A DNA stretch of 64,000 nt from Myxococcales bacterium SG8_38 (GCA_001303415.1 LJTN01000006.1:19759-83758); one strand, 5' to 3'. Shown: positions 25,785 through 46,757, numbered from the stretch's first letter. The notes: generated by a model not told the origin, from the sequence alone. Numbers and translations: made by a program.

Positions 25785-25921
25785 GGGTAACGCCCTCGGC
25801 GAAGCTATCAGCGATGGATCACCCCTCCAAATTGTCGACCTCGCAGCGATGAAGGCTGAAACGTTTCATCGCGGCTGGTTCTTCCCGGGGTCGAATTGCG
25901 GGCCCTTCAGACCGGCTCTAC

Positions 25922-26887: not shown

Positions 26888-26896
26888 CCTCCGCCC

Positions 26897-27883: not shown

Positions 27884-27889
27884 GCTTCC

Positions 27890-28283
27890 AGTGGAAAAGT
27901 TGTGGACGGAGTGTGTGTCGATGCGCAATCTGCTTCGGATCATGCAACACGATGCGAGGCGACGACTGTGGATGCATTGGGCAAGAAAAGACGCAGATGT
28001 TGCGCGAACGATAACGAGTCGCAAATCATAGTGATTGCAACAGCTTGTCAACAGCCAGGTAACGACAGGCAACGTCCTTCGCGCGTTCGTCAAAAAAACT
28101 GCAAGCGAATCTTTCGCGATCACGAGCGGTTAGAAATTAGCCTGTCGATCTTCGTAGACGGCTCGAAAACTCGCTGCTAGTTTCGGCGCCCTTCGGTCAG
28201 AGACACCAGCCGACGGTCGCCCAGTCGGTAGCAGTTGGTGGACGCCAACGGATCACTCGTCCCTCCGCGTGAGCTGTGGATCG
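27890..28283. promoter_or_regulatory. dnaA upstream region with degenerate DnaA boxes and locally reduced GC
   Basis: Box-like sites, read on the strand that matches the TTATCCACA consensus: AGTGGAAAA (27890-98), TGTGGACGG (27901-09), TGTGGATGC (27967-75) and TGTGGATCG (28275-83). The last two carry an exact ATCCACA core. An A/T-richer stretch lies at about 28020-28160. Confidence 0.5.
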
Positions 28284-28332
28284 TTTGGGGACGATAATGC
28301 GGAACTGCGTGCTTTTTGGGGGCAAGTAGACG

Positions 28333-29694
28333 ATGGAACAGCTGTGGGAACAAGCGCTGAATTGCCTGAAAACGCAGCTCTCCACAGAGAACTTCGAAAC
28401 CTGGTTAGAACCCGTCCAGTTTGGCGGAATCGAGGGTGATTCATTCGTTCTTCGAATCCCAAATCAGTTCTTTGCCGAGTGGATCGCTGCGCATTACCTC
28501 GACTTGATCGTCGACACGCTGCAGAGCCAAGCGGGTGATGCGCGCGTGCCATCGAAGGTTCGCTGGGAGCTCGACGAAACACTTCGCGAGAGAGCACAAG
28601 CTGCGCGCGAATCGACCCCGCCGCCACCCTCGGTCCGCGCGCCCCGCGCGACTCCCCGTGCGCCGGTGTCTGCCGACCTCAACCCGAAGTACCGATTCAA
28701 GAACTTCGTCGTCGGCCCGGCCAATCAACTCGCACATGCGGCAAGCGTCGCATGCGGCTCCGATCCGGGGCGTCGATATAATCCTCTGTTCATCTACGGA
28801 GGTGTAGGTCTCGGAAAGACACATCTGGTCAACGCCATCGGCCATGCGATCTTGCAACGCAACCCGCGTGCAAGGATCCTCTATCTTTCGGCGGAGCGTT
28901 TCACCAATGAGTTCATCTGGTCGTTGCAGAACCACCAGATCAATACATTTCGAGAACGATATCGAGCTCAGTGCGACGTGCTCCTGATGGACGACATCCA
29001 GTTTCTCGCCGGTCGCGAGCAGACGCAGGAAGAGTTTTTCCATACGTTCAACGCCCTGTATCACTCCGACAGGCAGATCGTGATGACCTCCGATGTCTAC
29101 CCTCAGCAGATTCCGGAGATGCAGGAGCGTCTGATCAGTCGTTTCCAGTCCGGGATGGTCGCGGACGTGCAGGCACCGGAGCTCGATACCCGGATCGCAA
29201 TCCTGCAGACCAAGGCCGAAAGCGAGGGCATCGAGCTTCCGAGCGAGGTGGCTTTGTTCTTGGCCCAGGCGGTGCGGAGCAACGTGCGGGAGCTCGAAGG
29301 GACGCTTCTTCGAATTGCGGTCAAGGCGGAGCTTCTGGGCCTTCCGATCGACCTCGAGCTCGCCAAGGACACGCTTCGAACCATGGTTCCGAACCAGGAC
29401 ACCGCGATGACGGTCGACGACATCCAGCGGATCGCCTGCGGCTACTTCGGGATTCGTCTCGCCGACCTCAAGTCGCGGCGCCGTCACCGCGCTGTGAGCT
29501 TTCCGCGCATGATTGCGATGTATGTCTGCCGTCAGCGGCTGGGCACGAGCTATCCCGAGCTTGGTGAGCGATTCGGCGGCAAGGACCACACCACGGTCAT
29601 CAGCGCCGTGCGGAAGATTGGGAGCCTGGTCGAGGCACAGGACGAACGCGTGCTGGGCGCCGTAGATGCCATCGAGCGCAAGCTCGGCATTTGA
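28333..29694 (+). CDS. dnaA: Chromosomal replication initiator protein DnaA
   Basis: 'MEQLWEQALNCLK...', AAA+ 'GGVGLGKTHL', and the domain IV 'DHTTVISAVRKI' block. Confidence 0.97.
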   Translation: MEQLWEQALNCLKTQLSTENFETWLEPVQFGGIEGDSFVLRIPNQFFAEWIAAHYLDLIVDTLQSQAGDARVPSKVRWELDETLRERAQAARESTPPPPSVRAPRATPRAPVSADLNPKYRFKNFVVGPANQLAHAASVACGSDPGRRYNPLFIYGGVGLGKTHLVNAIGHAILQRNPRARILYLSAERFTNEFIWSLQNHQINTFRERYRAQCDVLLMDDIQFLAGREQTQEEFFHTFNALYHSDRQIVMTSDVYPQQIPEMQERLISRFQSGMVADVQAPELDTRIAILQTKAESEGIELPSEVALFLAQAVRSNVRELEGTLLRIAVKAELLGLPIDLELAKDTLRTMVPNQDTAMTVDDIQRIACGYFGIRLADLKSRRRHRAVSFPRMIAMYVCRQRLGTSYPELGERFGGKDHTTVISAVRKIGSLVEAQDERVLGAVDAIERKLGI

Positions 29695-29704
29695 TGACAT
29701 CGAG

Positions 29705-29986
29705 TTTTCCACCGATTTGGGGGTCGTGTGGGAGGTCTGGCAAGCCGGGCCTTCCACACGCTTTTGGTGTATACAAGCGGCTGTGCTCGGGTTGGGGATC
29801 AACCTGGGGAGTGCCCCTGTGAATGGCTCTGCATGAGGGCTTTCCACAACCGAGCCAGGATCATCCACCACGCCACGATTGACTCAAAGTCTCATTCTTC
29901 CAAAGAGTTATCTTGCTTCATTCACAATCCACAGCTGTTAAGACGACGACGTATTTTAAAATTGAGAGATCTAACGCCGTGGATAA
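29705..29986. promoter_or_regulatory. Candidate oriC: DnaA-box cluster plus AT-rich stretch in the dnaA-dnaN intergenic region
   Basis: TTTTCCACC (29705-13), CCTTCCACA (29750-58), CTTTCCACA (29840-48), TCATCCACC (29861-69), CAATCCACA (29925-33) and CGTGGATAA (29978-86, which is TTATCCACG, 1 mismatch). AT-rich GTATTTTAAAATTGAGAGAT at 29951-70. Confidence 0.6.
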
Positions 29987-30019
29987 ACAGACACCTCATC
30001 GCATGGAGTGAACCGGAAC

Positions 30020-31156
30020 ATGGAGCTCTCGATCGAAAAGCAGCAGTTCCTGCGTGGCCTCGCACGAACGCACGGAGTCGCTGATCGCAAAAGCTCGATG
30101 CACATCCTATCCAACGTATTGCTCACGGCCGAGGGGCCTGACCGTCTTCGCTTGTCCGCAACCGATTTGTATCTTGGAGTGACCGCGCTCGTCCCCGCAA
30201 GCATCAAGAAGGGGGGCAGCATCGCCGTGTCGGCGCGGACGCTGTTCGACATTGCGAAGAACCTTCCGGACGGAGAGGTGAGCTGGAAGCTCACCGACAG
30301 CCATGCTGTCGAGCTTCGCTGTGGCAAGGTTCGCTATCGCATCCCGGCGATGCCAGGAGAGGATTTCCCGCCCTTGCCGAATCCGGGTGATGTCGACTTT
30401 GCGCATCTCGAGGCCGGGATTCTGTCGGAGCTGATCTCGCTCACCCAATACTCCATGTCTCACGATGATACGCGGCCCCATTTGGCGGGCACACTCTTCG
30501 AGGGCGATGGAAAGGTCGTTCGCATGGTCACGACCGACGGCCATCGCTTGTCGAAGGCCGAGCGCAAGGTGGGGGGCAAAGCCTCCATGATGAACTTCAG
30601 CATGCTCGTGCCGCACAAAGGGATCAGCGAGCTCAAACGTCTCCTCGACGACGTGAAGGCAGCGAAAGGCAAGGGCGAGGAGCCGGTGACGATCGGTATC
30701 GGAACCTCCGGGGGGCATGCGTTCTTCAGACAAGAAGACCTATGCCTCAGCGTGAAGCTCGCGGACGAAAACTTTCCGCCGTACAGCAAGGTCATCCCGA
30801 GCAAGCAGAGCCGCCGAATCATCGCGGCGCGCGGGCCATTGGTCGAAGCGCTTCGGCGAATCAGCCTGGTGGCGAACGACAAGAGCGGCGGCGTCCAGCT
30901 CATGATCGAGCCCGGAATGCTGCGAATCCAGAGCCAGAATCCCGAGGTGGGCGAGGGCAGCGAAGAGGTCGACGTCGACTACGCTGGAGACGGCCTGCGG
31001 ATCGGTTTCAACGCCAGGTACTTGCTCGATGCGTTGAGCGCGCTGCCCCATGACGAGGTGGCGATCGAGCTCAGCGGGGAGCGTGACCCTGGGGTGATCA
31101 AGCCGATCGGAGACAATGCGGAGTTCATCGGCGTCATCATGCCCATGCGCATCTAG
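30020..31156 (+). CDS. dnaN: DNA polymerase III beta sliding clamp
   Basis: Position after dnaA, three-domain clamp length (378 aa), and a C-terminal 'IGVIMPMRI'-type end. Confidence 0.93.
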   Translation: MELSIEKQQFLRGLARTHGVADRKSSMHILSNVLLTAEGPDRLRLSATDLYLGVTALVPASIKKGGSIAVSARTLFDIAKNLPDGEVSWKLTDSHAVELRCGKVRYRIPAMPGEDFPPLPNPGDVDFAHLEAGILSELISLTQYSMSHDDTRPHLAGTLFEGDGKVVRMVTTDGHRLSKAERKVGGKASMMNFSMLVPHKGISELKRLLDDVKAAKGKGEEPVTIGIGTSGGHAFFRQEDLCLSVKLADENFPPYSKVIPSKQSRRIIAARGPLVEALRRISLVANDKSGGVQLMIEPGMLRIQSQNPEVGEGSEEVDVDYAGDGLRIGFNARYLLDALSALPHDEVAIELSGERDPGVIKPIGDNAEFIGVIMPMRI

Positions 31157-31165
31157 GGCCAGGCG

Positions 31166-32275
31166 TTGACGTCGGAGAGCCCCAGCCGGGTCACCACGCT
31201 CGTCGCGCGCGGATTTCGCAATCTCGAGTCGTTGAGGTTCGCGCCGGGTCCTCACTTCAACGTGATCCACGGGGACAACGGAGCGGGCAAGTCGAGCCTG
31301 CTCGAGGCGATCTACTATCTCGGCGCGCTCAAGAGCTTTCGCGGCGCAAAGACGGACGACGTCATCGCGCTAGGGTCCGAGCAGGCCTCTCTCGAGGCGA
31401 CGCTCGGGGGAGGTCCCGCTCCCCACAAGCTGCGAATCGAAATCGGTCGCTCGCAGCGGCGGAGGCTGCAGCTCGATGGCAAGCGGCCTCGTTCGACCGG
31501 CGCCTGGTATCAAGCCGTCCGGATGGTGTTGTTCCATCCTGGAGACCTGGTGCTCGCCGCGGGCGCGGCGGACAAACGACGGGCCTTCGTCGACCGCATG
31601 CTCGAGCAGATGGACCCGATCTACGCCAATACGCTCGCGAGCTACGAGAAGGCGCTGCGAAGCCGCAACCGCTTGCTCAAGGACGGCCCGAGCGATCGGC
31701 GGTCGATCCGGGCCTACGATGCGATCCTCGCGAAGACCGGGGCGGTGGTCGGACAGGCCCGCCAGCGCTTGATCGAGGATCTCGGACCGAGGGTCGTCCG
31801 GGCGTTCTCGGACGTGTTTGGAGGCGAGACGCCGCTCGCGGTTCGGTACTTGCCGCGCGTCGAGCCCTCGGAGGCTGCAATCGTCGAAGCGCTCGAGCGT
31901 TCGTTCGAAAAAGATCGTGCCCGTGGCTTTACGGCCGATGGTCCGCACGGTGATGATGTGGAGCTGCGGCTGCATGGCGTTGGAGCGCGGCACCACGGCT
32001 CCCAGGGCCAGCACCGGACCATCGTCCTCGCCCTCAAGACAGCGGAGCTCGATTTGTTAGCGGAGAGGACGGGCCGGGTGCCCATCTTGTTGCTGGACGA
32101 CGTTTCGAGCGAGCTCGACCGAAGCCGAAACCGAAGGTTTTTCGAAGTGTTGAGCCAAGCGGGCGGCCAGGTGTTTCTGACGACGACCCACCCCGAGTTC
32201 ATACTGCTCGAGGATGATCGGGTCGACTTTCACGTCGACGGCGGGCGCGTCACTCGAGGATCTTGGCGCTCTTGA
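31166..32275 (+). CDS. recF: DNA replication/repair protein RecF
   Basis: TTG start. Walker A 'GDNGAGKSSLLEAI', signature 'GSQGQHRT' and Walker B 'ILLLDDVSSELD'. Confidence 0.92.
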   Translation: MTSESPSRVTTLVARGFRNLESLRFAPGPHFNVIHGDNGAGKSSLLEAIYYLGALKSFRGAKTDDVIALGSEQASLEATLGGGPAPHKLRIEIGRSQRRRLQLDGKRPRSTGAWYQAVRMVLFHPGDLVLAAGAADKRRAFVDRMLEQMDPIYANTLASYEKALRSRNRLLKDGPSDRRSIRAYDAILAKTGAVVGQARQRLIEDLGPRVVRAFSDVFGGETPLAVRYLPRVEPSEAAIVEALERSFEKDRARGFTADGPHGDDVELRLHGVGARHHGSQGQHRTIVLALKTAELDLLAERTGRVPILLLDDVSSELDRSRNRRFFEVLSQAGGQVFLTTTHPEFILLEDDRVDFHVDGGRVTRGSWRS

Positions 32276-32921
32276 TGTAGTCGAGCTTCGGAAAGCTCTC
32301 TCGGAGGTACGTGTTGCCTTGCGACTGAATCAGGGGCTGCGATGGACCGCGGCCACGGGGCGCCCCTTCGCCGTACCCGTCATAGAGCGCGTCGACCGGC
32401 GCCATGTCCTGAACCTTGCCAAACGGGGCAAAGCCCATGTCGTCGAGCCGCGAGTTGTCGGCGAAGTTGATGAAGAACTGCGTCGTGCGCGAGTCCGGAC
32501 CGGAGGTGGCGAACGTGACGGTGCCACGGGTATTGCTCGCCTTCACCGGATCGTCGGGGATGGTCTTTTGGCGCCACTGCGCGTTGAGCGCAGGGTCGCC
32601 GCTGATGCCTACCTGCGCCATGAAGCCGCCGATCACCCGGAAGAAGGCGACGTCGGTAAAGTAGCCGTTTTGCACCAGCTCGTAGAATCGATCGGCGCCA
32701 TGGGGCGCCCATTCACGGTGGACGTCGATCACGATCGCGCCTTTCGTGGTGTCGAGCTCGACGGTGTACCGGTCGGGCGCGCGGGTCTTGCCTTCGCTCA
32801 CCTGCTCCTCCTGCGTCGGAGCGGAGCCTTGCTCGGCTCCACTCTTGGTTTGTGCTTCTTCACTCTTGGGACATCCGACGAGGAATGCCCCGGCCAACAT
32901 GAAAACGGCTGTCGTGCGCAT
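32250..32921 (-). CDS. Cyclophilin-type peptidyl-prolyl cis-trans isomerase, lipoprotein
   Basis: Lipobox 'FLVGC'. 'FFRVIGGFMAQ' and 'GTVTFATSGPDSRTTQFFIN' cyclophilin blocks. The 3' end overlaps recF by 26 nt (convergent). Confidence 0.88.
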   Translation of the reverse strand: MRTTAVFMLAGAFLVGCPKSEEAQTKSGAEQGSAPTQEEQVSEGKTRAPDRYTVELDTTKGAIVIDVHREWAPHGADRFYELVQNGYFTDVAFFRVIGGFMAQVGISGDPALNAQWRQKTIPDDPVKASNTRGTVTFATSGPDSRTTQFFINFADNSRLDDMGFAPFGKVQDMAPVDALYDGYGEGAPRGRGPSQPLIQSQGNTYLRESFPKLDYIKSAKILE

Positions 32922-32961
32922 GGCGTACCTTGGCAAGGTGGGCCGCAGGCGCAAGCAACCG

Positions 32962-34056
32962 TCACGATTCGAAGAGACCCCGCAGCTTCTGCAGAAAGCT
33001 CGCCTGTTGGGGATGGGCATCGTCGCCGATCTCTTGTGCGAGCTCGGTGATCAATTTTCGCTGACGCCGAGTCACTTGCTGCGGTACCTCGACTACGACC
33101 GTGACCAGCTGATCGCCCTTGCCGTAGCCGCCATAGACCGGAATCCCCTTGCCGCGCAGCCGAAACATTTTTCCGGACTGGGTTCCGGGCGGCACCTTCA
33201 TGATTACCTTCCCCTCGAGCGTGGGGACGTCGATGCTGGCCCCGAGGACGGCCTGGGGATAGGAAATCGGAATCGATATCAAGATGTCGGCGCCTTCGCG
33301 CGTGAATAAGGCGTGGTCCTTGACCTTGATGTTGATGTGTAGGTCACCGTTGCCGCTCGCGCTGGCTTCTCCTGCGCCACGCACCGTACGAACCGCGCCG
33401 TCTTGCACGCCTGCAGGGATCTTCACCGTCATCGACTCTGCGCGCAGCTTGCTCCCGCTGCCATTGCAGTCGTCGCATGGCGTGGGGATCTTGGTGCCCG
33501 TGCCACGGCACGCATGGCATGGGCGCGAGGCGGCGAAGAGACCGCGCTGGTATTTTACCTGTCCCCGGCCCTGACAGACGTTGCACTTGTGGACTGGGGT
33601 GCCTGGCTTCGCACCCGTGCCACCACAGGTTGCGCATGGGGCGGGCCGATTCACGTCGATTGTCTTTTCGGTGCCGAGGGCGGCCTCTACGAACGAGATC
33701 TCCAAGTCGTAGGTGAGATCACGAGCTGCCCGGCGCTTGCGCCGGCTGCCGCTGAAGACCTCGCCAAACAATCCCTCCAGAATTTCGCTGACCGCGCCGA
33801 AGTCGCCCGGCTCGAAGCCGGTGCCTCCGCCTTGGAACGCCGCGTGCCCGTACCGATCGTACTGCGCGCGTCTGCCCGGATCGCTCAGGACCGCGTACGC
33901 TTCACTGGCCTCTTTGAACAAATCCTCGGCAGTGGGGTCGTCCGGATTCCGGTCCGGGTGGTACCTCATCGCAAGCGCACGATACGCTTGCTTGATCTCC
34001 TCGGCCGATGCGGCGCGGCTGACTTGGAGTATCACGTAGTAGTCACGCTTGCTCAC
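32962..34056 (-). CDS. dnaJ: Molecular chaperone DnaJ (type I, with CxxCxGxG zinc-finger domain)
   Basis: J domain 'DYYVILQV...HPDRNP', four CxxCxGxG repeats and a C-terminal substrate-binding domain. Confidence 0.93.
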   Translation of the reverse strand: MSKRDYYVILQVSRAASAEEIKQAYRALAMRYHPDRNPDDPTAEDLFKEASEAYAVLSDPGRRAQYDRYGHAAFQGGGTGFEPGDFGAVSEILEGLFGEVFSGSRRKRRAARDLTYDLEISFVEAALGTEKTIDVNRPAPCATCGGTGAKPGTPVHKCNVCQGRGQVKYQRGLFAASRPCHACRGTGTKIPTPCDDCNGSGSKLRAESMTVKIPAGVQDGAVRTVRGAGEASASGNGDLHINIKVKDHALFTREGADILISIPISYPQAVLGASIDVPTLEGKVIMKVPPGTQSGKMFRLRGKGIPVYGGYGKGDQLVTVVVEVPQQVTRRQRKLITELAQEIGDDAHPQQASFLQKLRGLFES

Positions 34057-34135
34057 GGATTTGCGGCAGTGTAGACGGGCCGTCTACCGGCGCAACAGCA
34101 TGGTAGAGAACCCAAGACTATGCGAGGGAACTGAG

Positions 34136-35059
34136 ATGGCAGCCTTCGAGCTCGAGGTCCAAGAGAGTGACGCCGGGCAGCGGCTCGACGTGATCCTGGC
34201 CCGTCGTGTGCCGGGGCTCAGCCGGGCGCGGGCTCGCGCGCTCATCGAGTCGGGCGGGGCTCGGGTTGAGGGGAGGCTGGTGAGGAAGAGCCACGTGTTG
34301 AGCGAGGGCGACCGGGTCACGCTCGAGACGCTGCCCGGGCCGGCCGATTTCTACGCCACGCCCGATCCCGACGTCCCGCTCGTGGTGCTGCTCGAGACCG
34401 AGACCTTCGTAGTGGTCGACAAGCCGGCAGGGGTGCCGAGCCACCCGCTCGAAGAAGGGGAGCGTGGGACGCTCGCGGGCGCGCTGGTGGCGCGCTATCC
34501 GGAGATCCGCGAGGTCGGCTACCGCAGACGCGAGCCAGGAATCGTGCACCGGCTCGACACGGGCACATCGGGCGTGATGCTCGCAGCGCGCACAGCCGAC
34601 GCGTTTCGGACATTGCGTGAGGAGCTGCGCGCAGGAAGAATCGAGAAGCGCTACCTGGCGCGTTGCATGGGCGTCGTCACCGCACCGTCGGTCATCGATG
34701 CTCCGATCGCAAACGATCCCGGTGACAGCCGCAAAGTGCGGGTGTGCACCGACGCACGGGCGGCCGAACGTCTAGGCGCGCAACCGGCGCGAACGGAAGT
34801 GATCAGCAGCAAGCCCGCGCCGCACGGCTCGCTCGTCGAAGTTCGCGCCAACTACGCGCGTCGCCACCAAATCCGCGCCCACCTCGCCTCGATCGGTCAT
34901 CCCCTGCTCGGAGACACCCTCTACGGCGGACCTCGCCTCGAGCACCCCGACCACCACCTCCTTCACGCTGTATCGTTGAGGACAGGGACACTCTCCATCA
35001 CCACAAGCACCTGGAATCACACTATTTCTGACCCAAAGATCGCAGCGCCCGATCATTGA
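34136..35059 (+). CDS. rluD: RluA-family 23S rRNA pseudouridine synthase (RluD-like, with S4 domain)
   Basis: S4-like N-terminus, catalytic '[12 protein letters not shown]', and '[17 protein letters not shown]'. Confidence 0.85.
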
Positions 35060-37074
35060 GGTTTTCTACGGCTCCGACCGCGACGCCACGCAGCATGACC
35101 AGACGAGTCGTTGCGATCTTTGCCTGGGGTCTGGCGTGATTTCGCGGAGTTGAGTCGGTGGAGAGTGTCCCGGAGCTGGGCGGCTTTTTCGAAGTCGAGT
35201 TGCTCGGCGGCGAGGAGCATCTCGCTTCGAAGCTCCTCGATGCGAGACGGGATGTCGGCGAGCTCGCTCGCCGCTTCGGACTTCTTGAGCACCGGGATCA
35301 CCACGTAGTCGCCTGCGCCGGTGGATCGATCCATTTCGAGCACGGCCTTCTTTACCGTTTGCGGCGTGATCCCGTGCGCGTCGTTGTATTGCTTCTGCCG
35401 CTCTCTGCGACGCTCGGTCTCCTCGATCGCAAAGCGCATCGCTTCGGTGATTCGATCGGCATACATGATCACCTCGCCGCCCGCGTTTCGCGCGGCGCGG
35501 CCAATCGTCTGAATGAGCGATCGGGGCGAACGAAGGAAGCCTTCTTTGTCTGCGTCGAGAATCCCCACCAGCGATACTTCGGGCAGATCGAGCCCCTCGC
35601 GCAACAGATTGATGCCGACGAGGATGTCGAACTCGCCACGCCGCAAATCCCTAAGAATTTCAACACGTTCTAGCGTGTCAACGTCGCTGTGCAGGTACCG
35701 CACGCGAACGCCGAGCTCGGCGTAATACTCCGTCAGGTCCTCCGCCATTCGCTTCGTCAGCGTGGTGATGAGCACACGCTCGTCCCGCCCCACACGCACA
35801 CGAATCTCGTTCAACAGATCATCGACCTGATGCTTGGTTGGCCGCACGTGCACTTTGGGATCGAGCAAACCGGTAGGACGGATCACCTGCTCGACGATCA
35901 CGCCGCGAGCCTGCTCGATCTCCCAATCCCCCGGGGTCGCGCTAACGTGAATGACTTGGCCGACGCGTTCCTGCCACTCGGAGAAACGCAGAGGACGATT
36001 GTCGAGCGCGCTAGGCAACCGGAACCCGTGCTCGACGAGCGTCTCCTTGCGGGCGCGATCGCCGCGATACATCGCGCCTAGCTGAGGCACCGTGATGTGC
36101 GACTCGTCCAACACCACCAAGAAGTCGTCGGGGAAGTAGTCGAGCAGAGTGGGCGGCGGCTCCCCTTCTTCTCGACCGGACAAATGCCGGCTGTAGTTTT
36201 CGATGCCGTGGCAGAAGCCCATTTGCTCGAGCATTTCGAGGTCGTACATCGTCCTTTGCTCGAGACGCTGTTTTTCCAGCAATTTTCCTTGAGATTCGAG
36301 CTTCGGCAGCCATTCACGAAGCTCCTCCCGAATCGACTCGATCGCGCGCTTTCGGTGCTCGTCCGGGGTGACGTAGTGGCTGCCTGGATAGATCCCATAC
36401 TGCTCGAGCTCTTCGAGCACCTTTCCTCTCATGGGATCGATCTCCACGATTCGCTCGATCTCGTCTCCCCAGAATTCGATCCGCACTGCGAGGTTCTCCG
36501 AGTGCGCCGGAAAGATTTCGACTACGTCGCCGCGAACGCGAAACGTGCCGCGATGAAAGTCGATGTCGTTGCGCTGGTACTGAATGTCCACGAGGCGCCG
36601 CAATAGACGATCGCGTCGGTACTCCTGCCCCACTTCGAGATTGATCAGCATCTCCTGATACCACTCCGAAGATCCGATGCCGTAGATGCACGACACGCTG
36701 GCGACGATGATCACGTCGCGTCTGGCGAGCAGCGAGCGCGTCGCGCTGTGGCGCATGCGGTCGACCTTGTCGTTGATGATGGCGTCCTTCTCGATGTACG
36801 TGTCGCTCGAGTACTCGACCGCGTTGTTCGGAAAGAGCTCGCGCATCTCTCCGTATAGCTGGGCGGCCAGCGTCTTGTTGGGTGCGATGATCAACGTGGG
36901 CCGCTTGCTGGCTGCGATGACGTGGGCCACGGTGAAAGTCTTCCCGCTTCCGGTGATGCCGAGGAGAACCTGGTGCGGGTCACCGCGCTCGAGGCCTTCC
37001 AAAAGCTCCGTAATTGCTGCGGGCTGATCGCCTTTTGGCTCCAGTTCCGTGACGAGCTCCAGCTGTCGGGCCAT
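35053..37074 (-). CDS. uvrB: Excinuclease ABC subunit B (UvrB), lacking about 15 residues of the beta-hairpin
   Basis: Collinear with remembered E. coli UvrB along its whole length ('GITGSGKTF', 'DESH', 'INLLREGLD', C-terminal UVR 'FEKAAQLRD'). The exception is '...NAVEY|[10 protein letters not shown]...', where '[15 protein letters not shown]' is expected. Confidence 0.9.
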
Positions 37075-37121
37075 CGAGCAAGGTTAGCTTGAAAAAGCAA
37101 AGAGTCCCTCTAAGGAGGGGG

Positions 37122-37835
37122 ATGGACCTCGCTCGGCTCTGGGATGTCACGACCGCGACTGCCGGCAGCGCAGCGCGCCCGAACTTCGGTAACCGCCACC
37201 ACCCGCGTCTCAAGGTCCCCGAGAGACCGCTGGAGCTCTACGAATTCGAGCTGTGCCCCTACTGCCGAATCGCCCGGGAGGCCCTTTCGGCGTTGAGCCT
37301 CGATCCCGTGATTTTCCCGTGTCCGAAGGGCGGCACCCGATTCCGGCTGCGAGTCAAAGCAGATGGCGGCCGCTTGCTGTTCCCGTTCTTGCGGGACCCC
37401 AACACGGGTATCGCGATGTACGAGTCGGCAGACATCGCGGCGTATCTGTTTCGCGAGTACGGCGACGGGCACGTTCCTTGGTTCTTGCGACGACGCGCCT
37501 TCGCCGTGTCAACGTCGATGCTCTCCTCCGCCCTGAGGCCGCATCGAGGAGGTTACGCGGTTCAGTCGCGTCTTCCCGAGCAGCTATTGGTGCTCTACTC
37601 CTACGAGGGCTCACCCTTTTGCCGAATCGCGAGAGAAGCGCTGTGCGAGCTCGAGCTTCCCTATCAGCTACGAAACGTTCCGCGAGGAAGCCCCGATCGC
37701 CCCGGTTTCGTCGCGATCTCCGGCAAGATGCAGGTCCCTTACCTGGTGGATTCGAATACCGGCGTGCAGATGTTCGAATCGGACGAGATCCGGCGCTACC
37801 TCTACGATACGTACGCAGAGGAGCGCGCACGGTAG
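37122..37835 (+). CDS. Tandem glutaredoxin/GST-N-like thioredoxin-fold protein
   Basis: ATG at 37122 is preceded by AAGGAGG. Two repeats: 'LELYEFELCPYCRIAREAL' and 'LVLYSYEGSPFCRIAREAL'. Confidence 0.65.
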   Translation: MDLARLWDVTTATAGSAARPNFGNRHHPRLKVPERPLELYEFELCPYCRIAREALSALSLDPVIFPCPKGGTRFRLRVKADGGRLLFPFLRDPNTGIAMYESADIAAYLFREYGDGHVPWFLRRRAFAVSTSMLSSALRPHRGGYAVQSRLPEQLLVLYSYEGSPFCRIAREALCELELPYQLRNVPRGSPDRPGFVAISGKMQVPYLVDSNTGVQMFESDEIRRYLYDTYAEERAR

Positions 37836-37864
37836 AGCCCCGAAGAGCACGATTCTACCGCTCC

Positions 37865-38953
37865 TCAGCCGTTCTTCTTGGCGAACGCACGGGCGAGCTC
37901 CACGAACTTTTCGACGTCGGCGGGCTCCGTGGCGTTGTAGATCGACGTGCGGATGCCGCCGACCGAACGATGTCCCTTGATGCCTACCATGCCGGCGGCA
38001 GCGGCCTCGGCGATGAGCTTCTTTTCGAGCTCCTCGGTGGGAAGCCGGAACACCGGGGTCATCATGGAGCGCGACTCCACTTCGACCGGGCATCGGAAGA
38101 AATCAGGGTTTTCGTCGATCATGCCGTAGATGGCGCCGGCCTTCTGCCGGTTGCGCTTCTCCATGGCTGCCGCACCGCCCTGCTCGCGGACCCAACGAAG
38201 CACGTTGCGAACCATGTAGACCGGAAAGGTCGGGATGGTGTTCTGCAACGAGTCGTTGTCGAGCAGCGTCTTATACCGAAAGATCTTGGGAAGTGTCTTC
38301 GGGATGCGCTCCGCCAGATCCTTGCGAAGGATCAGCACGGTAATGCCCGCAGGGCCCAGGTTCTTTTGCGCGCCCGCGTAGATGAGGCCGAACTTCGACA
38401 CGTCGATGGGACGCCACAGAATGTCGCTCGACATGTCGGCAACGAGCGGCACTTCACCGCTGTCGGGATAGTCGTGGAACTGGGTTCCCATGATCGTGTT
38501 GTTGCTTGTGAAATGCACGTATGCGGCCGTGCGATCGAGGGCGAGCTCTGACTGCCCGGGCACGCGAATGTAGTGGCCGTCGACTTTCCCGGTGCCGGCC
38601 TCGCGTGCGTCGCCCGTGATCTTCGCTTCGGAGAGCGCTTTGTCGCTCCATGCGCCGGTCATGATGTAATCCGCGGACTCGCCAGAGCCGCGGAGATTCA
38701 TTGGGACAAGCGCGAACTGCGCGGATGCGCCGCCCTGCATGAACAGCACCTCGTGCGTGTCGGGGATGTCGAGCAGCTCACGCAAGAGAGACTTGGTCTC
38801 TTCGTGGACCTTCGCGTACGTGGCACCGCGATGGCTGTGCTCGAGGAGGGACATGCCCGTGCCCTCGAAGTCGAGGAATTCTTTTTGCGCGTGCTCGAGG
38901 ACTGACAACGGAAGTGTTGCAGGCCCCGCGTTGAAATTGATTACGCGAGCCAT
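37865..38953 (-). CDS. serC: Phosphoserine aminotransferase
   Basis: 'MARVINFNAGPATLP' N-terminus, PLP-lysine block 'GAQKNLGPAG', 362 aa. Confidence 0.93.
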   Translation of the reverse strand: MARVINFNAGPATLPLSVLEHAQKEFLDFEGTGMSLLEHSHRGATYAKVHEETKSLLRELLDIPDTHEVLFMQGGASAQFALVPMNLRGSGESADYIMTGAWSDKALSEAKITGDAREAGTGKVDGHYIRVPGQSELALDRTAAYVHFTSNNTIMGTQFHDYPDSGEVPLVADMSSDILWRPIDVSKFGLIYAGAQKNLGPAGITVLILRKDLAERIPKTLPKIFRYKTLLDNDSLQNTIPTFPVYMVRNVLRWVREQGGAAAMEKRNRQKAGAIYGMIDENPDFFRCPVEVESRSMMTPVFRLPTEELEKKLIAEAAAAGMVGIKGHRSVGGIRTSIYNATEPADVEKFVELARAFAKKNG

Positions 38954-39024
38954 AGGCGCGCCAGCCTAGCCGCGCTTTGAACCCGTGCAACTCGCTGCGG
39001 CTAGGGGCGCAAACCCGAAGAAAC

Positions 39025-39100
<76 letters not shown>

Positions 39101-39230
39101 GAGGTCGGCGGTTCGTATAGCTTCGCCGCTTGCGCGTGCAACTCGAACGTACCCGAAGGGCCGCCATACCTGAAAACGCGTGCGGTGGCCTCGCTTGCCG
39201 GTAGGGCCTCCACCCCTCTACCTTGAATCC

Positions 39231-39971
39231 ATGGGACAAAGGTGGGGGATTCTGCTTTGCATCGCCGTGTGCCACGTGGCGACGCTCGGCGCGCTCCCGG
39301 TGGACGCGCAAACATCGACCGAGGACGCGGCGGCCAGGGAGTACTTCGAGCGCGGACGCACCGCATTCCAAGAGGCCGACTACGAGGGGGCGTTGGTCTA
39401 TTTCCGGCACGCGTACCGCTTGAGTCAGCGAAGCGAGCTTCAGTACAACATCGGCGTCGCAGCGGATCGACTGCAGCGAGAAGAAGAAGCGGTGGAAGCG
39501 TTCGAGCGTTACCTCGAGGAAACCGAGCAGCCGGCCCGAGAGGCGGAGGTGCGCGAGCGGATCGCCGCGCTGCGACGCTCGATCGAAGAGCGCGACGCGA
39601 CCAAACGCGCGCTCGAAGAAGCGGCCGTCCGATACGAGCCCGCAGGGCCCAAGACTGCAACTGTCGACGGCGCCCGCATCAAGACCTCGGCCATCGCAGG
39701 ATCGACCGCGCTCGCGGCGGCGGGCGCTGCGGGCGTAGCCGCTATGGGTATCGGGCTCGCGAGGGACGGATCATGCGCGCGGGAGATCGGGGGACGGTGT
39801 GTAACGGAGCATTCGTCAACGGCGTGGACATGGGTGTACGGCGGGCTCGGCGTTGCGGCTTTGGCAGGTAGCGCGGCCTGGCTATCGGTCAGCGCGAAGC
39901 GCCAAAAGAACGCGCACACGACGCGCGTCTCGATTACGCCGACCGGCGTCCGGGTCACGGGCACCTTCTGA
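39231..39971 (+). CDS. Secreted TPR-like protein with C-terminal membrane anchor (hypothetical)
   Basis: Signal peptide 'MGQRWGILLCIAVCHVATLGALPVDA', TPR-like 'AREYFERGRTAFQEADYEGALVYF', and a Gly/Ala-rich TM segment. Confidence 0.55.
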   Translation: MGQRWGILLCIAVCHVATLGALPVDAQTSTEDAAAREYFERGRTAFQEADYEGALVYFRHAYRLSQRSELQYNIGVAADRLQREEEAVEAFERYLEETEQPAREAEVRERIAALRRSIEERDATKRALEEAAVRYEPAGPKTATVDGARIKTSAIAGSTALAAAGAAGVAAMGIGLARDGSCAREIGGRCVTEHSSTAWTWVYGGLGVAALAGSAAWLSVSAKRQKNAHTTRVSITPTGVRVTGTF

Positions 39972-40012
39972 GTGAGAATCGGCGTTGATACCTTCGCAGG
40001 ATCCCAAAAGTC

Positions 40013-40687
40013 TTATATTTTCAATATGTTGAGGAGCTGCGAGGCAACGCTACCGAGCCCGGATGGGCTCTGTACCTTGGGCGCGCGGATGATCGGAATC
40101 CGGGGCAGGTAATCGGTCAGCACTTCGGCGTTGGAGCGGCGGCTCAAGTCGTCTGCGCGATCGCGCTCGACGTGATTGAGCACGATGGCGCGCACCGACA
40201 CGCTCCGTTTGCGAAGCGCCTCGACGGCGGTGAGGGTATACGAAAGCACGCCAAGCGCGTCGCGCGCCACCAAGACGGTCTGGAGATCGAGCTCCGCAGC
40301 GAGATCCGCCATCGTATGCTTGCGATCGAGCGGCACCAAGACACCGCCGGCGCCTTCGACGATGAGATAGTCCGCGCCCGCCGCGAGCTCTCGAATGCGC
40401 TTGGCAAGCGAGCGCAAGGAACCGACCGCCGGACCGCCGCGTTTCTGGATTGCGTAGGGAGCGAGAGGTTCCTTGGCCCGGTAGAGACCGGCTGCCGAGG
40501 CCAATGATTCGTCGCCGCTAGCCCGGGCCAGTGCAAGCGCATCACGGGGCTCGGGGTCTGCGCCCGTCTCGATCGGCTTGATGGCAGCCACATGCTTTCC
40601 GCGATCGAGACAAGCCGTTGCCAGCGCCGTCGCGATCCAGGTCTTGCCAACGCCCGTGCCGGTGGCAGTAACGAAAGCACCCTTCAT
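40013..40687 (-). CDS. bioD: Dethiobiotin synthase
   Basis: 'MKGAFVTATGTGVGKTW' P-loop and 'IVEGAGG'. ATGA overlap with the bioF stop. Confidence 0.88.
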   Translation of the reverse strand: MKGAFVTATGTGVGKTWIATALATACLDRGKHVAAIKPIETGADPEPRDALALARASGDESLASAAGLYRAKEPLAPYAIQKRGGPAVGSLRSLAKRIRELAAGADYLIVEGAGGVLVPLDRKHTMADLAAELDLQTVLVARDALGVLSYTLTAVEALRKRSVSVRAIVLNHVERDRADDLSRRSNAEVLTDYLPRIPIIRAPKVQSPSGLGSVASQLLNILKI

Positions 40688-41880
40688 GAGCTCGCCTCCT
40701 GTTCTTCTTTGGCGACCGCGGCGACCGCGGCGAACGCATCGATCGCTTGCTCGATATGGTCTGGCCGATGCGTGGCCATCGGCGTGACCCTGAGCCTGGC
40801 TGTTCCCGCAGGTACGGTGGGCGGGCGAATGCCTTGCACGAACACACCTCGCTCGAGCAGCTGGGCCGAGAGCAGCATGGCTCGATCGTTGTGGCCGACG
40901 AGCACGGGCACGATCTGGCTTTCGCCCCAAGGCACCTCGAAGCCGAGCGCTCGAAGCTCGGTCCTCAATCGGCCGGCGTGGGCCAGCAACGAGCGCCTCC
41001 CCTCGTCCGCCTCCCGCACCACCGTCAGCGCAGCCAGCGCCGCGCGGGCGATCATGGGCGGGGGCGCCGTCGAGAACACGAAGCTCCGGGCCCGGCTTCG
41101 AACCAGCGAAACGAGCGCCTCGCTCCCCGCAACGAATGCGCCTGCCGTTCCAAATGACTTGCCGAGGGTGCCAATGAGCGCGTCGGGTTCGACGCCGTGT
41201 GCGGCGGCGAGACCGCGTCCGGAGGGGCCCATCACACCCAGGGCGTGTGCCTCATCCACGAGCAACCCGGCTTCGAAGGACTTGGCCAGCTCGGCAATGG
41301 GCGGCAAGGGGGCAGCGACGCCATCCATGGAGAAGAGCGAGTCGGTCACGATCAGGGCCCGTTTGGCTCGGCCCCGGTGACGCCGCAGCAGCGACTCGAG
41401 GTGTCCGGGGTCTCGGTGCGCATAGACGTGAACCTCGGCCCGCGAGAGCCGGCAGCCGTCGATGAGGCTCGCGTGGTTCAAGGCATCGCTGAAGACTGCG
41501 TCGCCCGGGCCGACCAGCGCTTGGATGGTCCCGACGTTCGCGTCGTATCCGCTCGAGAATAGAATCGCGGCAGGCGCCCCGACGAAGTGAGCAAACGCGC
41601 TTTCCGCTTCTTCGTGCGCATCCATCGTGCCCGTGACGAGACGGGAGGCGGCCGATCCGATTCCTTCGGTGAGCACTGCGGCACGGGCTGCTGCGGCAAG
41701 GACCGGATGAGCTGCCAGGCCGAGGTAGTTGTTCGAGCATAGGCAGAGCACGGAGCGTCCGTCGATCAAGATCTCAGGACCCTGGGGCCCGGAAATGCGC
41801 ACCGGGCTGCGGCGCAGACCCGCGGCCTCCAATTCGTCGAGGGCCTCTCGAATCCGGCGTTGAAACCCCATGGAACGCAT
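40684..41880 (-). CDS. bioF: 8-amino-7-oxononanoate synthase
   Basis: Alpha-oxoamine synthase family with PLP-Lys block 'GTLGKSFG'. Operonic with bioD. Confidence 0.88.
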   Translation of the reverse strand: MRSMGFQRRIREALDELEAAGLRRSPVRISGPQGPEILIDGRSVLCLCSNNYLGLAAHPVLAAAARAAVLTEGIGSAASRLVTGTMDAHEEAESAFAHFVGAPAAILFSSGYDANVGTIQALVGPGDAVFSDALNHASLIDGCRLSRAEVHVYAHRDPGHLESLLRRHRGRAKRALIVTDSLFSMDGVAAPLPPIAELAKSFEAGLLVDEAHALGVMGPSGRGLAAAHGVEPDALIGTLGKSFGTAGAFVAGSEALVSLVRSRARSFVFSTAPPPMIARAALAALTVVREADEGRRSLLAHAGRLRTELRALGFEVPWGESQIVPVLVGHNDRAMLLSAQLLERGVFVQGIRPPTVPAGTARLRVTPMATHRPDHIEQAIDAFAAVAAVAKEEQEASS

Positions 41881-41916
41881 CTAAGCCTAGCGCGCGGAGG
41901 GGTCAACAGGAGCCGG

Positions 41917-41966
41917 GTGTTCCACGTGAAACACAGATCGGGAGCGATGCTGTTTCACGTGAAACG
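41917..41966. promoter_or_regulatory. Two CACGTG-centred palindromes upstream of bioFD (candidate operator pair)
   Basis: GTGTTCCACGTGAAACAC (41917-34) and TGTTTCACGTGAAACG (41951-66). Centres are 33 bp apart, 37-86 nt upstream of the bioF ATG. Confidence 0.5.
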
Positions 41967-41973
41967 GCCGAGC

Positions 41974-42936
41974 TCAGAGCTTCAGGCTTTCCCGAGGATC
42001 TCGATCGAACGCTTCCTCGACGGTCTTGAGGGCTTCTTCGACCGCCTCGGATCGACTCTTCGGCAGGACCACCTCGAGGTGCGCGATCAGATCTCCTCTC
42101 TGGCCGCCCTTCGCTGCGACGCCCTTCCCCCGGAGACGAAGCTTCGCGCCGCTCTCGGAGCCGGCAGGCACCGTCAGCTGGACGCTGCCCTCAGGCGTCG
42201 GCACGCTCACCTTGGCACCCGCATAGGCCTCAAGCGGAGTGACCGGCACCTTCACGTGGAGCTGCTTGCCCTTCATTGAGAAGTAGGGGTGCTTCCGCAC
42301 GCGGACCGTGAGCACCAGATCCCCCGGAGGCCCCCCGTGGATCCCCTCTCCGCCTTGCCCCCGCAGCCGGATCTTGCCCTCGTTGTGGACCCCGGCGGGA
42401 ATGCGTACCTTCAGCGTTCGCTCGCCCTCGGCCGACCGCAGGTTGAGCTCCTTGGTGCAGCCGAGCACGGCATCCCTGAAGTCCACCGTGATCTCGGACT
42501 CGAGGTCAGCACCCCGCCGTGGAGCGCGCGCGTAGGCGCTCGGACCGGGCCCGCCCACTCCGAACAGATCCTCCAGATTGAACTCGAACTGCGTCGCGCT
42601 CCCGCGTCGGCGTCCTCTGGCAGCCGCGCCAAAGAGATCGCCAAAATCGAATCCACCCGCCCCGCCGAAACCCTGCGTTGCCGTCCGATACGCCTCGGGA
42701 TCGAATCCTTCGCGCAAACCCATCTCGCCAAACTCGTCGTAGAGCTTGCGCTTCTCTGGAGCAGACAATACCTCGTAGGCGGTCGATACGTCCTTGAACC
42801 GCTCTTCAGCTCTCTTGTCGTCCGGGTTTCGATCCGGATGCAGCTCCCTCGCAAGACGGCGGTATGCCTTCTTGATTTCCTCCGGGCTTGCATCCCGCGA
42901 CACCCCCAGCGTTTTGTAGAAGTCGCGGTCAGCCAT
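41974..42936 (-). CDS. cbpA: J-domain co-chaperone without zinc finger (CbpA/type II DnaJ-like)
   Basis: 'DFYKTLGV...HPDRNPDD' J domain, G/F-rich linker, two DnaJ C-terminal beta domains, and no CxxCxGxG repeats. Confidence 0.8.
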
Positions 42937-43128
42937 GGCGCTGCAAGATAACCATCAGGGGCCGTGTTTCAATGCAAATTTGTTTGGGCCGCATGGCCAG
43001 TTTCGGCCTCTTCTACTCACACTAATGCCACAAATGGCAGCTCGAAGCTTCGTAACAGACAAACCTGCGTACAATACGCGAATTCACCCGTTCTTGCTGC
43101 GCTCCAAGGCGCATGATACTCGCTCGCC

Positions 43129-43905
43129 ATGGCTTTGGTCGATGTCAGTCGGCTTCCGCAGCATGTCGCGATCATCATGGACGGCAACGGTCGCTGGGCC
43201 CAATCCAGAGGCAAGCCGCGCACGGCTGGACACGAGCGAGGGGCCGACGCGGTGCGCGCCATCATGCGCGCCGCCCGACGGCTCGGAATCCCCACGCTCA
43301 CGCTCTACGCCTTCAGCGAGCAGAACTGGGATCGTCCACGAGCCGAAATCAACGCGCTGGTCGATCTCTTGTGCGACTGTCTCGTGTCCGAGCGCGACGA
43401 GCTGATCGACAACGAGATTCGATTGAATGCGATCGGTCGTCTGCACAAGTTGCCGACGCGCGCGCAGTCCAAGCTTCACGCGCTCATGGATGCGACAGCA
43501 TCCTTCGGCGGAATGACGATGACCTTGGCGCTCTCCTATGGGGGTCGCGAGGAGCTCGTCGATGCGGCGCGCGTTCTTGCACGACGCGTGCGTGAGGGTT
43601 CGTTGGAACCGGACGAGATCGATCAAGCCGCGCTCGAAGCATCATTGCCGTCGATGGATTGCGGTCCTGTCGACTTGTTGATCCGCACCGGCGGAGAGCA
43701 GCGAATCAGCAACTTCTTGCTCTGGGGATCGGCGTACGCGGAGTTCTATTTCACCGACGAGCTCTGGCCAGATTTCTCTGCAAATTCGCTATATTGCGCG
43801 ATTCGCGCCTACCAAGAGCGAGAGCGTCGTTTTGGGCTCGTTCCCGGCGCGCAGCATGCCGCCGCGACGAATGAATCACGCGACGAGTTGGAGCGTGCGA
43901 TATGA
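43129..43905 (+). CDS. uppS: Undecaprenyl-diphosphate synthase (cis-isoprenyl transferase)
   Basis: 'HVAIIMDGNGRWA', 'LTLYAFSEQNW' and 'RTGGEQRISNFLLW'. Confidence 0.93.
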   Translation: MALVDVSRLPQHVAIIMDGNGRWAQSRGKPRTAGHERGADAVRAIMRAARRLGIPTLTLYAFSEQNWDRPRAEINALVDLLCDCLVSERDELIDNEIRLNAIGRLHKLPTRAQSKLHALMDATASFGGMTMTLALSYGGREELVDAARVLARRVREGSLEPDEIDQAALEASLPSMDCGPVDLLIRTGGEQRISNFLLWGSAYAEFYFTDELWPDFSANSLYCAIRAYQERERRFGLVPGAQHAAATNESRDELERAI

Positions 43906-44747
43906 ACGATGCATCCGATCCACTCGTCGCGAAGAAGCGATTGACGGGAACTGCGCTTCGCGTCGCGACGGTCGTTCCTCTGATTCCGATCATCGTCTGG
44001 ATGATGTTTGCGGGACCTCATTGGCTTTGGCGAGTGTTCATCTTGAGCGCGATCGCGATCGGCGGCTACGAGCTCATGGCGATGAAGGTTCCATCGTCGC
44101 GCACGATGCGAGCGTGGGGCTCTGCGAGCTCCGTTCTGTTTGCATGTTCGATCCTGTTGATCCCGAGCGTGTCAGCAATGTACGGCGTCGTGCTCATCAT
44201 CGTCTTGGGCGCGATGGTATGGAGCCTTCTTCAGGAAGATCCACTTCGGGATGCGAGCGTTCGCGTCGGCTGGTTGTTGGGCACGCCGGTCTATGTCGGT
44301 GGCACGCTCTCGGCCGTTTCTCTCGTGCGTGACTTCGACCCGACGGGAGCTTGGGTTTTGCTGGCGATGACTCTTGCTTGGGGCAGCGACACGGCCGCCT
44401 ACTTCTTCGGCCGCAAGTTCGGAACGACTAAGCTATCTCCACGCATCTCGCCAAAGAAGACGTTGGAAGGCTCGGGCGCGGGTCTCGCTGCGTCGGTGAT
44501 CGGCGCGATGATCATGAGCTTTTTCCTTCCCGGCCTAGGTGTGGTCGACGGAATTGCGCTCGGCATTTTGGCAGGGGCCGCGGGTCAGGCCGGGGACTTG
44601 TTCGTGTCGGTGCTCAAGCGGAGCAGCGGCGTCAAGGACAGTGGCGGAATACTGCCAGGCCACGGCGGCATTCTGGATCGGGTCGATGCGCTGGCGTTTA
44701 CCGCGCCGGCAACCTGGGCCTACGGGCACTTCATCGCAGGGCTCTGA
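43902..44747 (+). CDS. cdsA: Phosphatidate cytidylyltransferase
   Basis: ATGA overlap with uppS. Polytopic membrane protein with signature 'SVLKRSSGVKDSGGILPGHGGILDRVD'. Confidence 0.9.
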   Translation: MNDASDPLVAKKRLTGTALRVATVVPLIPIIVWMMFAGPHWLWRVFILSAIAIGGYELMAMKVPSSRTMRAWGSASSVLFACSILLIPSVSAMYGVVLIIVLGAMVWSLLQEDPLRDASVRVGWLLGTPVYVGGTLSAVSLVRDFDPTGAWVLLAMTLAWGSDTAAYFFGRKFGTTKLSPRISPKKTLEGSGAGLAASVIGAMIMSFFLPGLGVVDGIALGILAGAAGQAGDLFVSVLKRSSGVKDSGGILPGHGGILDRVDALAFTAPATWAYGHFIAGL

Positions 44748-44795
44748 TTTCCCCGAAATGCCTCACCAGTCCACTCGTCCTCGAATCGAAAAAGA

Positions 44796-45566: not shown

Positions 45567-45906
45567 CGGGGGCCTCCATTTCAATCCGTTCCAAGATGAT
45601 CTCGTCTCCGCGAACCATGCAAGCCGGTTGCCCGCATGCATCGCATCGCAAGATCGCTCCCTTTGCGAAGCTGCGGTTGCACACAGGGCAAGCCCATGCC
45701 GCGGACACGGTGTCGATTGCGAGCTCTGCGCCATCACAGATCGTCTTCTCGCGAAACGTGTCGAACGCAGTCTTCAACAGATCGAGCTCGACGCCGGCGA
45801 GCTCTCCGATCTTCACGTGAAGACGATGCACGCGCGTACCGCCGTGCGCGACCGCTTCCTGCTGCACGCGGTCGATCAAAGACGCAACGATGGAGTACTC
45901 GTGCAT
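45559..45906 (-). CDS. hypA: Hydrogenase nickel metallochaperone HypA
   Basis: 'MHEYSI' N-terminus and two CxxC pairs ('CPVC', 'CDAC'). Length 115 aa. Confidence 0.92.
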   Translation of the reverse strand: MHEYSIVASLIDRVQQEAVAHGGTRVHRLHVKIGELAGVELDLLKTAFDTFREKTICDGAELAIDTVSAAWACPVCNRSFAKGAILRCDACGQPACMVRGDEIILERIEMEAPDV

Positions 45907-45911
45907 GGGTG

Positions 45912-46754: not shown

Positions 46755-46757
46755 CGG

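Follow-up and report, generated by a model that had tools for sequence, protein, structure and literature searches.

UvrB, a central protein of bacterial nucleotide excision repair (NER), carries a beta-hairpin that inserts between the DNA strands, with the damaged strand running behind it (PMC7835731). In the account of that review, which cites Skorvaga 2002 (PMID 11687584) and Moolenaar 2001 on this point, conserved hydrophobic residues at the hairpin base are needed for the interaction with damaged DNA. The variant Y96A does not accept damaged DNA from UvrA and is arrested at the UvrAB-DNA complex, and an engineered hairpin-deletion UvrB shows altered DNA contact and 'unencumbered' movement on DNA, while the complex with UvrC is still formed (PMC3643590). 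A UvrB-like protein part without this element occurs in Mfd's UvrB-homology module, in which a short loop replaces the hairpin and UvrA binding via domain 2 is kept (PMC7835731). Here we describe a naturally occurring uvrB gene that lacks 15 codons of the hairpin. It lies in a 64,000-nucleotide stretch of DNA from Myxococcales bacterium SG8_38 (GCA_001303415.1, LJTN01000006.1:19759-83758), the whole of which is called the window below. The host is an uncultivated Polyangiales-like myxobacterium, and the gene is its ordinary chromosomal uvrB. The following features of the gene are needed first:

35053..37074, minus strand: uvrB coding sequence, 673 amino acids, assigned by equivalog models and PDB UvrB chains, intact except for a 15-codon gap

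36810..36811, minus strand: junction left by the deletion, where codon 88 (Y) meets codon 89 (S), 45 nucleotides or 15 codons gone, defined by the phmmer gap and by wild-type contigs

36772..36810, minus strand: what is left of the beta-hairpin, its descending strand (codons 89-101), which now follows Y88 directly, from the translation and the phmmer alignment

36807..36818, no strand: perfect 12-nucleotide palindrome TCGAGTACTCGA, which occurs once in the window against 0.01 occurrences expected by chance

Taking all evidence together, we consider it probable that this gene is a spontaneous, very recent and probably repair-dead uvrB allele, which arose at a deletion hot spot specific for its clade. 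The gap itself had been proposed in an initial annotation made from the DNA alone, which relied on the UvrB sequences of E. coli and Bacillus caldotenax. Both sequences had been given correctly, and the 15-residue in-frame gap between codons 88 and 89 was recovered by phmmer and by the wild-type contigs, with an ambiguity of 1 nucleotide (T). The comparison with PDB chains showed one gap, 15 columns wide, after query residue 88 and before residue 89; it faces FVSYYDY(A/Y)QPEAYVP of B. caldotenax UvrB. The lost residues are F89-P103 in the numbering of that protein and include Y92, Y93, Y95, Y96, E99 and Y101, so that of the aromatic hairpin residues Y92, Y93, Y95, Y96, Y101 and Y/F108 the Y108 equivalent alone is left. 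On the DNA level, codon 88 (TAC) occupies 36813..36811 and codon 89 (TCG) 36810..36808, and the 45 deleted nucleotides, as read from near-identical wild-type contigs, are TTCGTCAGCTACTACGACTACTACCAGCCCGAGGCGTACATCCCA. The two breakpoints have 1 nucleotide (T) in common, which makes the cut positions 264 and 265 equivalent and corresponds to a 1-nucleotide microhomology. Repeats of more than 1 nucleotide flanking the deletion are absent from the wild-type sequence, nothing there comes near k-mer length, and no tandem repeats or repeat arrays were found in the window. A structure model by AlphaFold2, calculated from a shallow alignment of 34 sequences, showed no hairpin and a per-residue confidence (pLDDT) below 50 for residues 89-113, but the whole model was poor (mean 55.5) and is given no weight.

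The hairpin deletion engineered in B. caldotenax UvrB reportedly takes the tip, Q97-D112. The window protein resembles that engineered variant in that the domains and ATPase motifs are intact and the strand-inserting hairpin is gone (Skorvaga et al., 2002; also in PMC3643590). It differs in its boundaries, because F89-P103 comprises the ascending strand, the four base tyrosines and a part of the tip, whereas the descending strand is kept. Furthermore, the window allele appears to have arisen spontaneously in a wild population. Mutagenesis in another study is said to have shown that the hairpin tyrosines verify the damage and prevent binding to undamaged DNA. The window allele has lost the same damage-verifying residues that were exchanged in the mutants Y92A/Y93A, Y95A/Y96A and Y101A (Moolenaar et al., 2001, EMBO J 20:6140). 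However, the single or double substitutions keep the hairpin scaffold, whereas the window allele is devoid of the residues and of the strand carrying them. The likeness to the Mfd module, which consists of domains D1a, D1b and D2 and also represents a natural UvrB-like fold without hairpin, is superficial, since Mfd has no ATPase motifs there and the module is an ancient conserved domain of another protein, whereas the window gene keeps the motifs and shows one fresh deletion.

By analogy with the engineered hairpin mutants, the following scenario is proposed. A very recent spontaneous in-frame deletion of 45 bp in the sampled population would have removed the ascending strand and the tip of the hairpin. 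The mutant UvrB would still fold, bind UvrA and UvrC and hydrolyse ATP, yet the damaged strand would be neither clamped nor verified. A stable pre-incision complex would then not be formed and incision by UvrC would not occur, leaving a strain without NER. The loss of function is thus predicted from the behaviour of related proteins, and we likewise infer that the deletion originated in vivo.

The initial annotation had also pointed to the 12-nucleotide palindrome spanning the junction, and the palindrome is indeed present. The deletion must be regarded as its origin, since 45 nucleotides separate the two halves in the wild type and the junction of GTCGAGTAC to TCGAGCGAC creates TCGAGTACTCGA. 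As a cause of the deletion this palindrome was rejected, since it is made by the junction and absent from the wild-type sequence. A deletion between two TCGAG direct repeats was rejected as well, because such an event would take 53 instead of 45 nucleotides and shift the frame.

Apart from the gap, the protein is collinear with its homologs and intact, as had been assumed before. Residues 5-642 align without further interruption to the PDB UvrB chains 1t5l, 2fdc, 1d9z and others (phmmer, E about 1e-260), and the scores exceed the cut-offs of both NCBIfam equivalog models, namely NF003673 (1009.5 bits, cut-off 743) and TIGR00631 (986.1 bits, cut-off 750.1), the latter being the profile suggested for a check by the initial annotation. 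The Pfam domains ResIII/DEAD, UvrB_inter, Helicase_C, UvrB and UVR are all found, among them the UvrA-interaction domain 2 (PF17757 UvrB_inter, residues 144-234, 1.1e-37) and the C-terminal, UvrC-binding UVR domain (PF02151, residues 611-641, 5.5e-09). Walker A GSGKT, DESH, SATP and QTIGRAAR, the motifs expected for a superfamily-2 helicase/ATPase, can all be read in the translation. Only two private substitutions occur at otherwise invariant columns, both of them conservative, which represents no excess. The gene order Aminotran_5, double-GST_N_3, uvrB, rluB-like/DnaJ is the same as in wild-type relatives and on the twin contigs described below. Hence, the window gene is a uvrB ortholog by descent that lacks the aromatic beta-hairpin, the functional hallmark of the family. 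A second uvrB copy was not found within the 64-kb window. Two further observations concern the ends of the gene and the protein: the basic C-terminal UvrB tail is longer in the window species than in relatives, and uvrB and a convergent S4/pseudouridine-synthase gene (34049..35059) overlap at their 3' ends by 7 nucleotides (35053..35059).

The age of the deletion could be assessed by re-inserting the 15 residues into the window protein and searching a protein collection for an exact match to the resulting 688-amino-acid sequence. The restored UvrB was found exactly, on three contigs of other assemblies, L094, L095 and L096, which as a set correspond to ENA ERZ27279932 (k141_8028038, 188.5 kb), JGI 3300027917 (Ga0209536_100000104, 118.5 kb) and ENA ERZ27275805 (6 kb). 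These wild-type contigs show the same gene order and 0-2 mismatches to the window, i.e. 99.98-100% identity over the compared stretches. The comparison extended over 22 kb (window positions 25053..47074) in the case of the long contigs and over about 6 kb in that of the third. In uvrB, the 2022 bases in common are identical throughout, and the 45 nucleotides are the sole uvrB difference. Since near-identical contigs from three other assemblies carry an intact uvrB, the deletion is private and extremely young. The window gene otherwise equals the wild-type allele, therefore selection has had no time to act, and the intactness of the remaining gene is uninformative on retained function. A 22.5-kb Logan contig of run SRR29904085 likewise codes for the exact 673-amino-acid protein; this contig is 100% identical to window positions 32053..39052 (7 kb) including the junction. 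A rare assembly collapse, one of the three explanations given in the initial annotation, is not supported by these data. Collapse between repeats would require direct repeats of about k-mer length, but only 1 nucleotide is common to the breakpoints, and the second assembly agrees with the first. This makes a collapse by the assembler unlikely.

It was furthermore asked in the initial annotation whether close relatives lack the same residues as a normal lineage feature. The closest 120 database proteins are 84-88% identical, 656-693 amino acids long and come from metagenome-assembled genomes of Polyangiales, Myxococcales or 'Deltaproteobacteria'. In 118 of them the 15-residue hairpin segment is kept. 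A wider scan for the junction used a degenerate DNA pattern encoding E-Y-x-x-D-T-[YF]-I-E-K-D in one genome per species, covering 185,579 species in a set that did not include the source genome. The junction was found in no UvrB of these species representatives, and the lone match, in a Clostridiales membrane protein, occurred by chance. A search with a 46-residue peptide spanning the junction matched only short open reading frames (ORFs) of 61-81 amino acids, every one of them with a wild-type hairpin. Scanning metagenome contigs with GTCGARTAY N{36,66} AAYGAYAARGTNGAYCGNATG, a pattern for shortened hairpins in any frame, returned no match, and the JGI alleles described below are evidently outside that collection. 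A lineage-specific hairpin-less UvrB was thus not encountered: 118 of the 120 relatives are intact, the junction is absent from the 185,579 species, and the twin is identical elsewhere. Among the three earlier explanations, a damage-blind UvrB variant comes closest to our findings as far as a private, very recent allele is meant, whereas as a variant on the lineage level it is contradicted by the three intact assemblies of practically the same strain and by the relatives. The observation of the initial annotation is therefore confirmed and its interpretation partly supported.

These data also bear on the idea that the window encodes a functional hairpin-less UvrB, with the true repair perhaps carried out by another uvrB copy located elsewhere in the genome. 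The intact frame, helicase motifs, UvrA-interaction domain and UVR domain as well as the lack of excess private substitutions are compatible with such a protein, and Mfd demonstrates that a UvrB-like module with a short loop can be biologically useful (PMC7835731). Nevertheless, only 45 nucleotides differ from the wild type, which left no time for selection; the locus is conserved, and the gene in it is the ortholog and not a paralog; a second uvrB is absent from the window; such a form is kept in no diverged lineage, and deletions at the same spot include frameshifting ones. We therefore regard a working hairpin-less UvrB as very improbable.

The deletion in the window is not the only one of its kind. 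Six further deletion alleles of the hairpin region were found in two related species (A and B below), whose uvrB genes are 91.5% identical in DNA:

15-nucleotide deletion, DYYQP lost: P0014, locus L005, on a 130-kb contig

18-nucleotide deletion, DYYQPE lost: P0142, locus L091

19-nucleotide deletion, frameshift, uvrB split into two ORFs: locus L007 (JGI 3300033143)

66-nucleotide deletion, D94-I115 lost, gene positions 278-345: P0139/L090 (40-kb contig) and P0059/L006, both from JGI 3300033144, one per species

88-nucleotide deletion, frameshift, uvrB in two ORFs, ending directly after the right inverted-repeat arm: locus L008 (JGI 3300040954)

For each of the six, a near-identical intact twin exists. 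The in-frame alleles are 99.7-100% identical in protein to intact twins (P0014 corresponds to P0036 and P0139 to P0037, while P0142 and P0059 are near P0137), and two alleles, those of 19 and 88 nucleotides, are frameshifting. Together with the window, seven young deletions fall into the same stretch of roughly 100 nucleotides in three related species. Five of the seven events have their left breakpoint just after AGCTACTAC, and the microhomology at the breakpoints amounts to 0-3 nucleotides. When 131 full-length clade members were aligned, core indels were confined to the hairpin columns, and the remaining indels were located in a variable linker or in the C-terminal tail. That the same 66-nucleotide deletion is seen on two species backgrounds could be due to mutations recurring with fixed end points, to recombination that transferred the allele or to partial chimerism of the assembly. 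The L090 and L006 contigs with this deletion have a 137-nucleotide identical stretch in common.

As controls, we inspected 80 diverse uvrB loci from metagenome contigs, among which no hairpin deletion occurred (0/80), and complete genomes of E. coli, where the 304-nucleotide hairpin region was found in 5,425 of 5,426 genomes and a hairpin deletion in none of the 5,425. The weakest E. coli match among those listed was in one piece, with 99% coverage and 96.4% identity. Because both sets of controls are intact, hairpin deletions are a general property neither of uvrB nor of metagenome assembly. Two irregular sequences were seen besides. The unrelated uvrB of locus L087 (73% identical, contig Ga0075163_10024891) has a frameshift at about 794-840, just after the hairpin near RMRHGAT, which is probably a single-base indel; its hairpin is intact. 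The short uvrB fragment P0143 (73 amino acids, JGI) has the hairpin segment in another frame, implying two compensating frameshifts that flank the hairpin codons.

The affected region is bracketed by a GC-rich inverted repeat, for which the window provides the following arms:

36757..36764, no strand: inverted-repeat arm GCGGTCGA (plus strand), 8 bp, perfect, in the V-D-R codons downstream of the hairpin

36815..36822, no strand: inverted-repeat arm TCGACCGC (plus strand), 8 bp, perfect, in the A-V-E codons just upstream of the deletion

A distance of 95 nucleotides separates the two arms in the wild type. The repeat is perfect and GC-rich, is present in all three deletion-bearing species and extends to 10 bp in species A and B (ATGCGGTCGA/TCGACCGCAT), where it brackets the hairpin region. 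An equivalent repeat of at least 8 bp exists in only 3 of the approximately 74 other metagenome uvrB loci that could be scored. In the predicted fold of single-stranded DNA, the arms make up the closing stem around the whole hairpin-coding segment, with fold z-scores that are modest, namely -2.0 and -3.0 for species A and -2.1 and -0.6 for the window species. At least seven independent young deletions, with 0-3 nucleotides of microhomology, in about 100 nucleotides that are bracketed by an 8-10 bp GC-rich inverted repeat argue for a local deletion hot spot. It may act by replication slippage or end-joining, possibly with the help of the stem. The inverted repeat is compatible with stem-assisted slippage or with breakage and end-joining, but this is a correlation only, and any role of the repeat is our inference.

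Deletion hot spots stimulated by palindromes or quasi-palindromes are known, for example from the deletion spectra of E. coli lacI. The uvrB region has in common with them that deletions of tens of bases recur, that the terminal homologies are very short and that the events lie between GC-rich inverted-repeat arms. It differs in that the microhomology is only 0-3 nucleotides and the end points are off the stem base, so that the part played by the repeat is hypothetical here. Two other sources of sequence loss were considered and rejected. The excision of an intein, intron or mobile element does not fit, since no insertion alleles exist among the 131 aligned sequences, and CRISPR self-targeting was set aside, given that the window contains no repeat arrays; the hot spot as a whole may still involve such excision or targeting.

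Stem-forming inverted repeats can also provoke polymerase skipping. It must be asked whether the 45 nucleotides are present in the cells and were lost in vitro, for instance if the polymerase template-jumped across the stem-loop in a whole-genome or low-input amplification, or whether the assembler took a minor variant, with the deletions in the related species explained likewise. Several facts would suit such a technical artefact: every deletion allele stems from metagenome assembly, the wild type is present in three other assemblies of the same strain, the segment lies inside the 8-10 bp inverted repeat that closes a predicted single-stranded stem, five JGI samples with nearby numbers contain a different allele in each, and an unrelated RND transporter gene in the same window is frameshifted. 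However, two different assemblies agree on the deletion, and 1 nucleotide common to the breakpoints provides no substrate for the collapse of a de Bruijn graph. Moreover, independent fragments of an ordinary shotgun library cannot easily agree on a deletion made in vitro, the primary contigs on which the deletions are located are long (130 kb, 40 kb and at least 64 kb), and none was seen in the other 118 relatives or the 80 diverse loci, which were similarly assembled. In our opinion an artefact is unlikely.

If the deletions are real, the question arises how selection acts on them. All alleles are young, two of them are frameshifted, and fixation in a diverged lineage was seen for none, which fits a frequent origin and later purging, with the hairpin under long-term purifying selection. 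Alleles of the hot spot would accordingly arise often but not persist. An adaptive loss of excision repair was considered as well, in which positive selection acts in favour of the hairpin deletions, for example if incision by UvrABC is costly or lethal in the presence of some DNA-binding compound or useless in the dark, and the hot spot supplies the mutations for local sweeps. It would fit that long contigs of at least six samples have a deletion allele as their consensus, a different one in each sample, and that the identical 66-nucleotide deletion is found on the two species backgrounds in one sample. The two frameshift alleles imply that selection, if any, is for loss of function and not for a new function. 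Nevertheless, no allele has diverged from its wild-type twin or become fixed in a lineage, which suggests long-term purifying selection, and the hairpin is intact in 118 of the 120 relatives. If selection were simply for loss of function, disruptive mutations would be expected throughout the gene; truncated genes were met only incidentally. Such positive selection appears distinctly unlikely to us. A related and broader possibility is that the hairpin segment is hypermutable in vivo in the Polyangiales-related clade, whereby repeated self-deletion switches off NER and the alleles rise to local dominance; we find this conceivable but doubtful.

The preferred reading, a recent and probably repair-dead allele from a clade-specific hot spot, also meets with difficulties. 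Several separate samples have a deletion allele as the consensus of a long contig, which goes beyond the simple picture of a 'rare deleterious mutation'. The link to the inverted repeat is based on two or three independent lineages and on modest z-scores of -0.6 to -3.0, and the breakpoints are away from the stem base. The deletion allele is known from assembled contigs only, and the two assemblies that contain it, the one of the window and the Logan assembly, may be derived from the same run. The predicted loss of function is taken from engineered mutants of B. caldotenax and E. coli, whose deletion has different boundaries (Q97-D112).

The window contains several other genes of interest. An AcrB-family RND transporter gene (20839..23986, plus strand) is split into two overlapping ORFs in different frames, of which 20839..21696 matches positions 2-279 and 21527..23986 positions 272-1019 of Pfam ACR_tran. 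The frameshift implied near 21635..21670 coincides with no obvious homopolymer, and the split gene may be a pseudogene or reflect an assembly indel. A membrane-fusion gene of the HlyD type (19631..20842) lies just upstream of it. The genes dnaA (28333..29694), dnaN (30008..31156) and recF (31166..32275) are found on the plus strand, opposite to that of uvrB, at a distance of about 3-7 kb from it. Because of these three genes and a dip of the G+C content to 0.60 at 26-30 kb, the chromosomal replication origin probably lies in the window, where the GC skew gave no clear fork direction. A tRNA-Ala(CGC) gene is located at 39025..39100 on the minus strand. Finally, a cluster on the minus strand (49264..54870) includes a HypF carbamoyltransferase gene (49264..51552, full-length match) and a gene for the large subunit of a [NiFe] hydrogenase (53164..54870), while hypA and a cobW/hypB-like gene are found on the wild-type twin contig. 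This cluster of maturation and structural genes suggests hydrogen metabolism in the organism.

Regarded on its own, the window allele is a mutant of a very well understood repair gene and changes nothing in our view of how UvrB works. It represents a natural counterpart of the engineered hairpin-deletion mutants, and an isogenic wild-type reference from other samples comes ready-made, with which the function of the hairpin could be tested cleanly in a non-model lineage. The hairpin-deleted proteins clear every UvrB model threshold without the key functional element, hence caution is advised in the annotation of metagenome-assembled genomes. The clustering of the deletions in three related species, but not in E. 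coli or in diverse uvrB genes, points to a sequence-specific deletion hot spot within an essential functional element. If confirmed by read data, it would be a natural example of structure-prone coding DNA that yields loss-of-repair variants. Should the doubtful case of alleles rising to local dominance prove true, wild bacteria of this clade would possess a recurrent, possibly adaptive and irreversible 'repair-off' switch.

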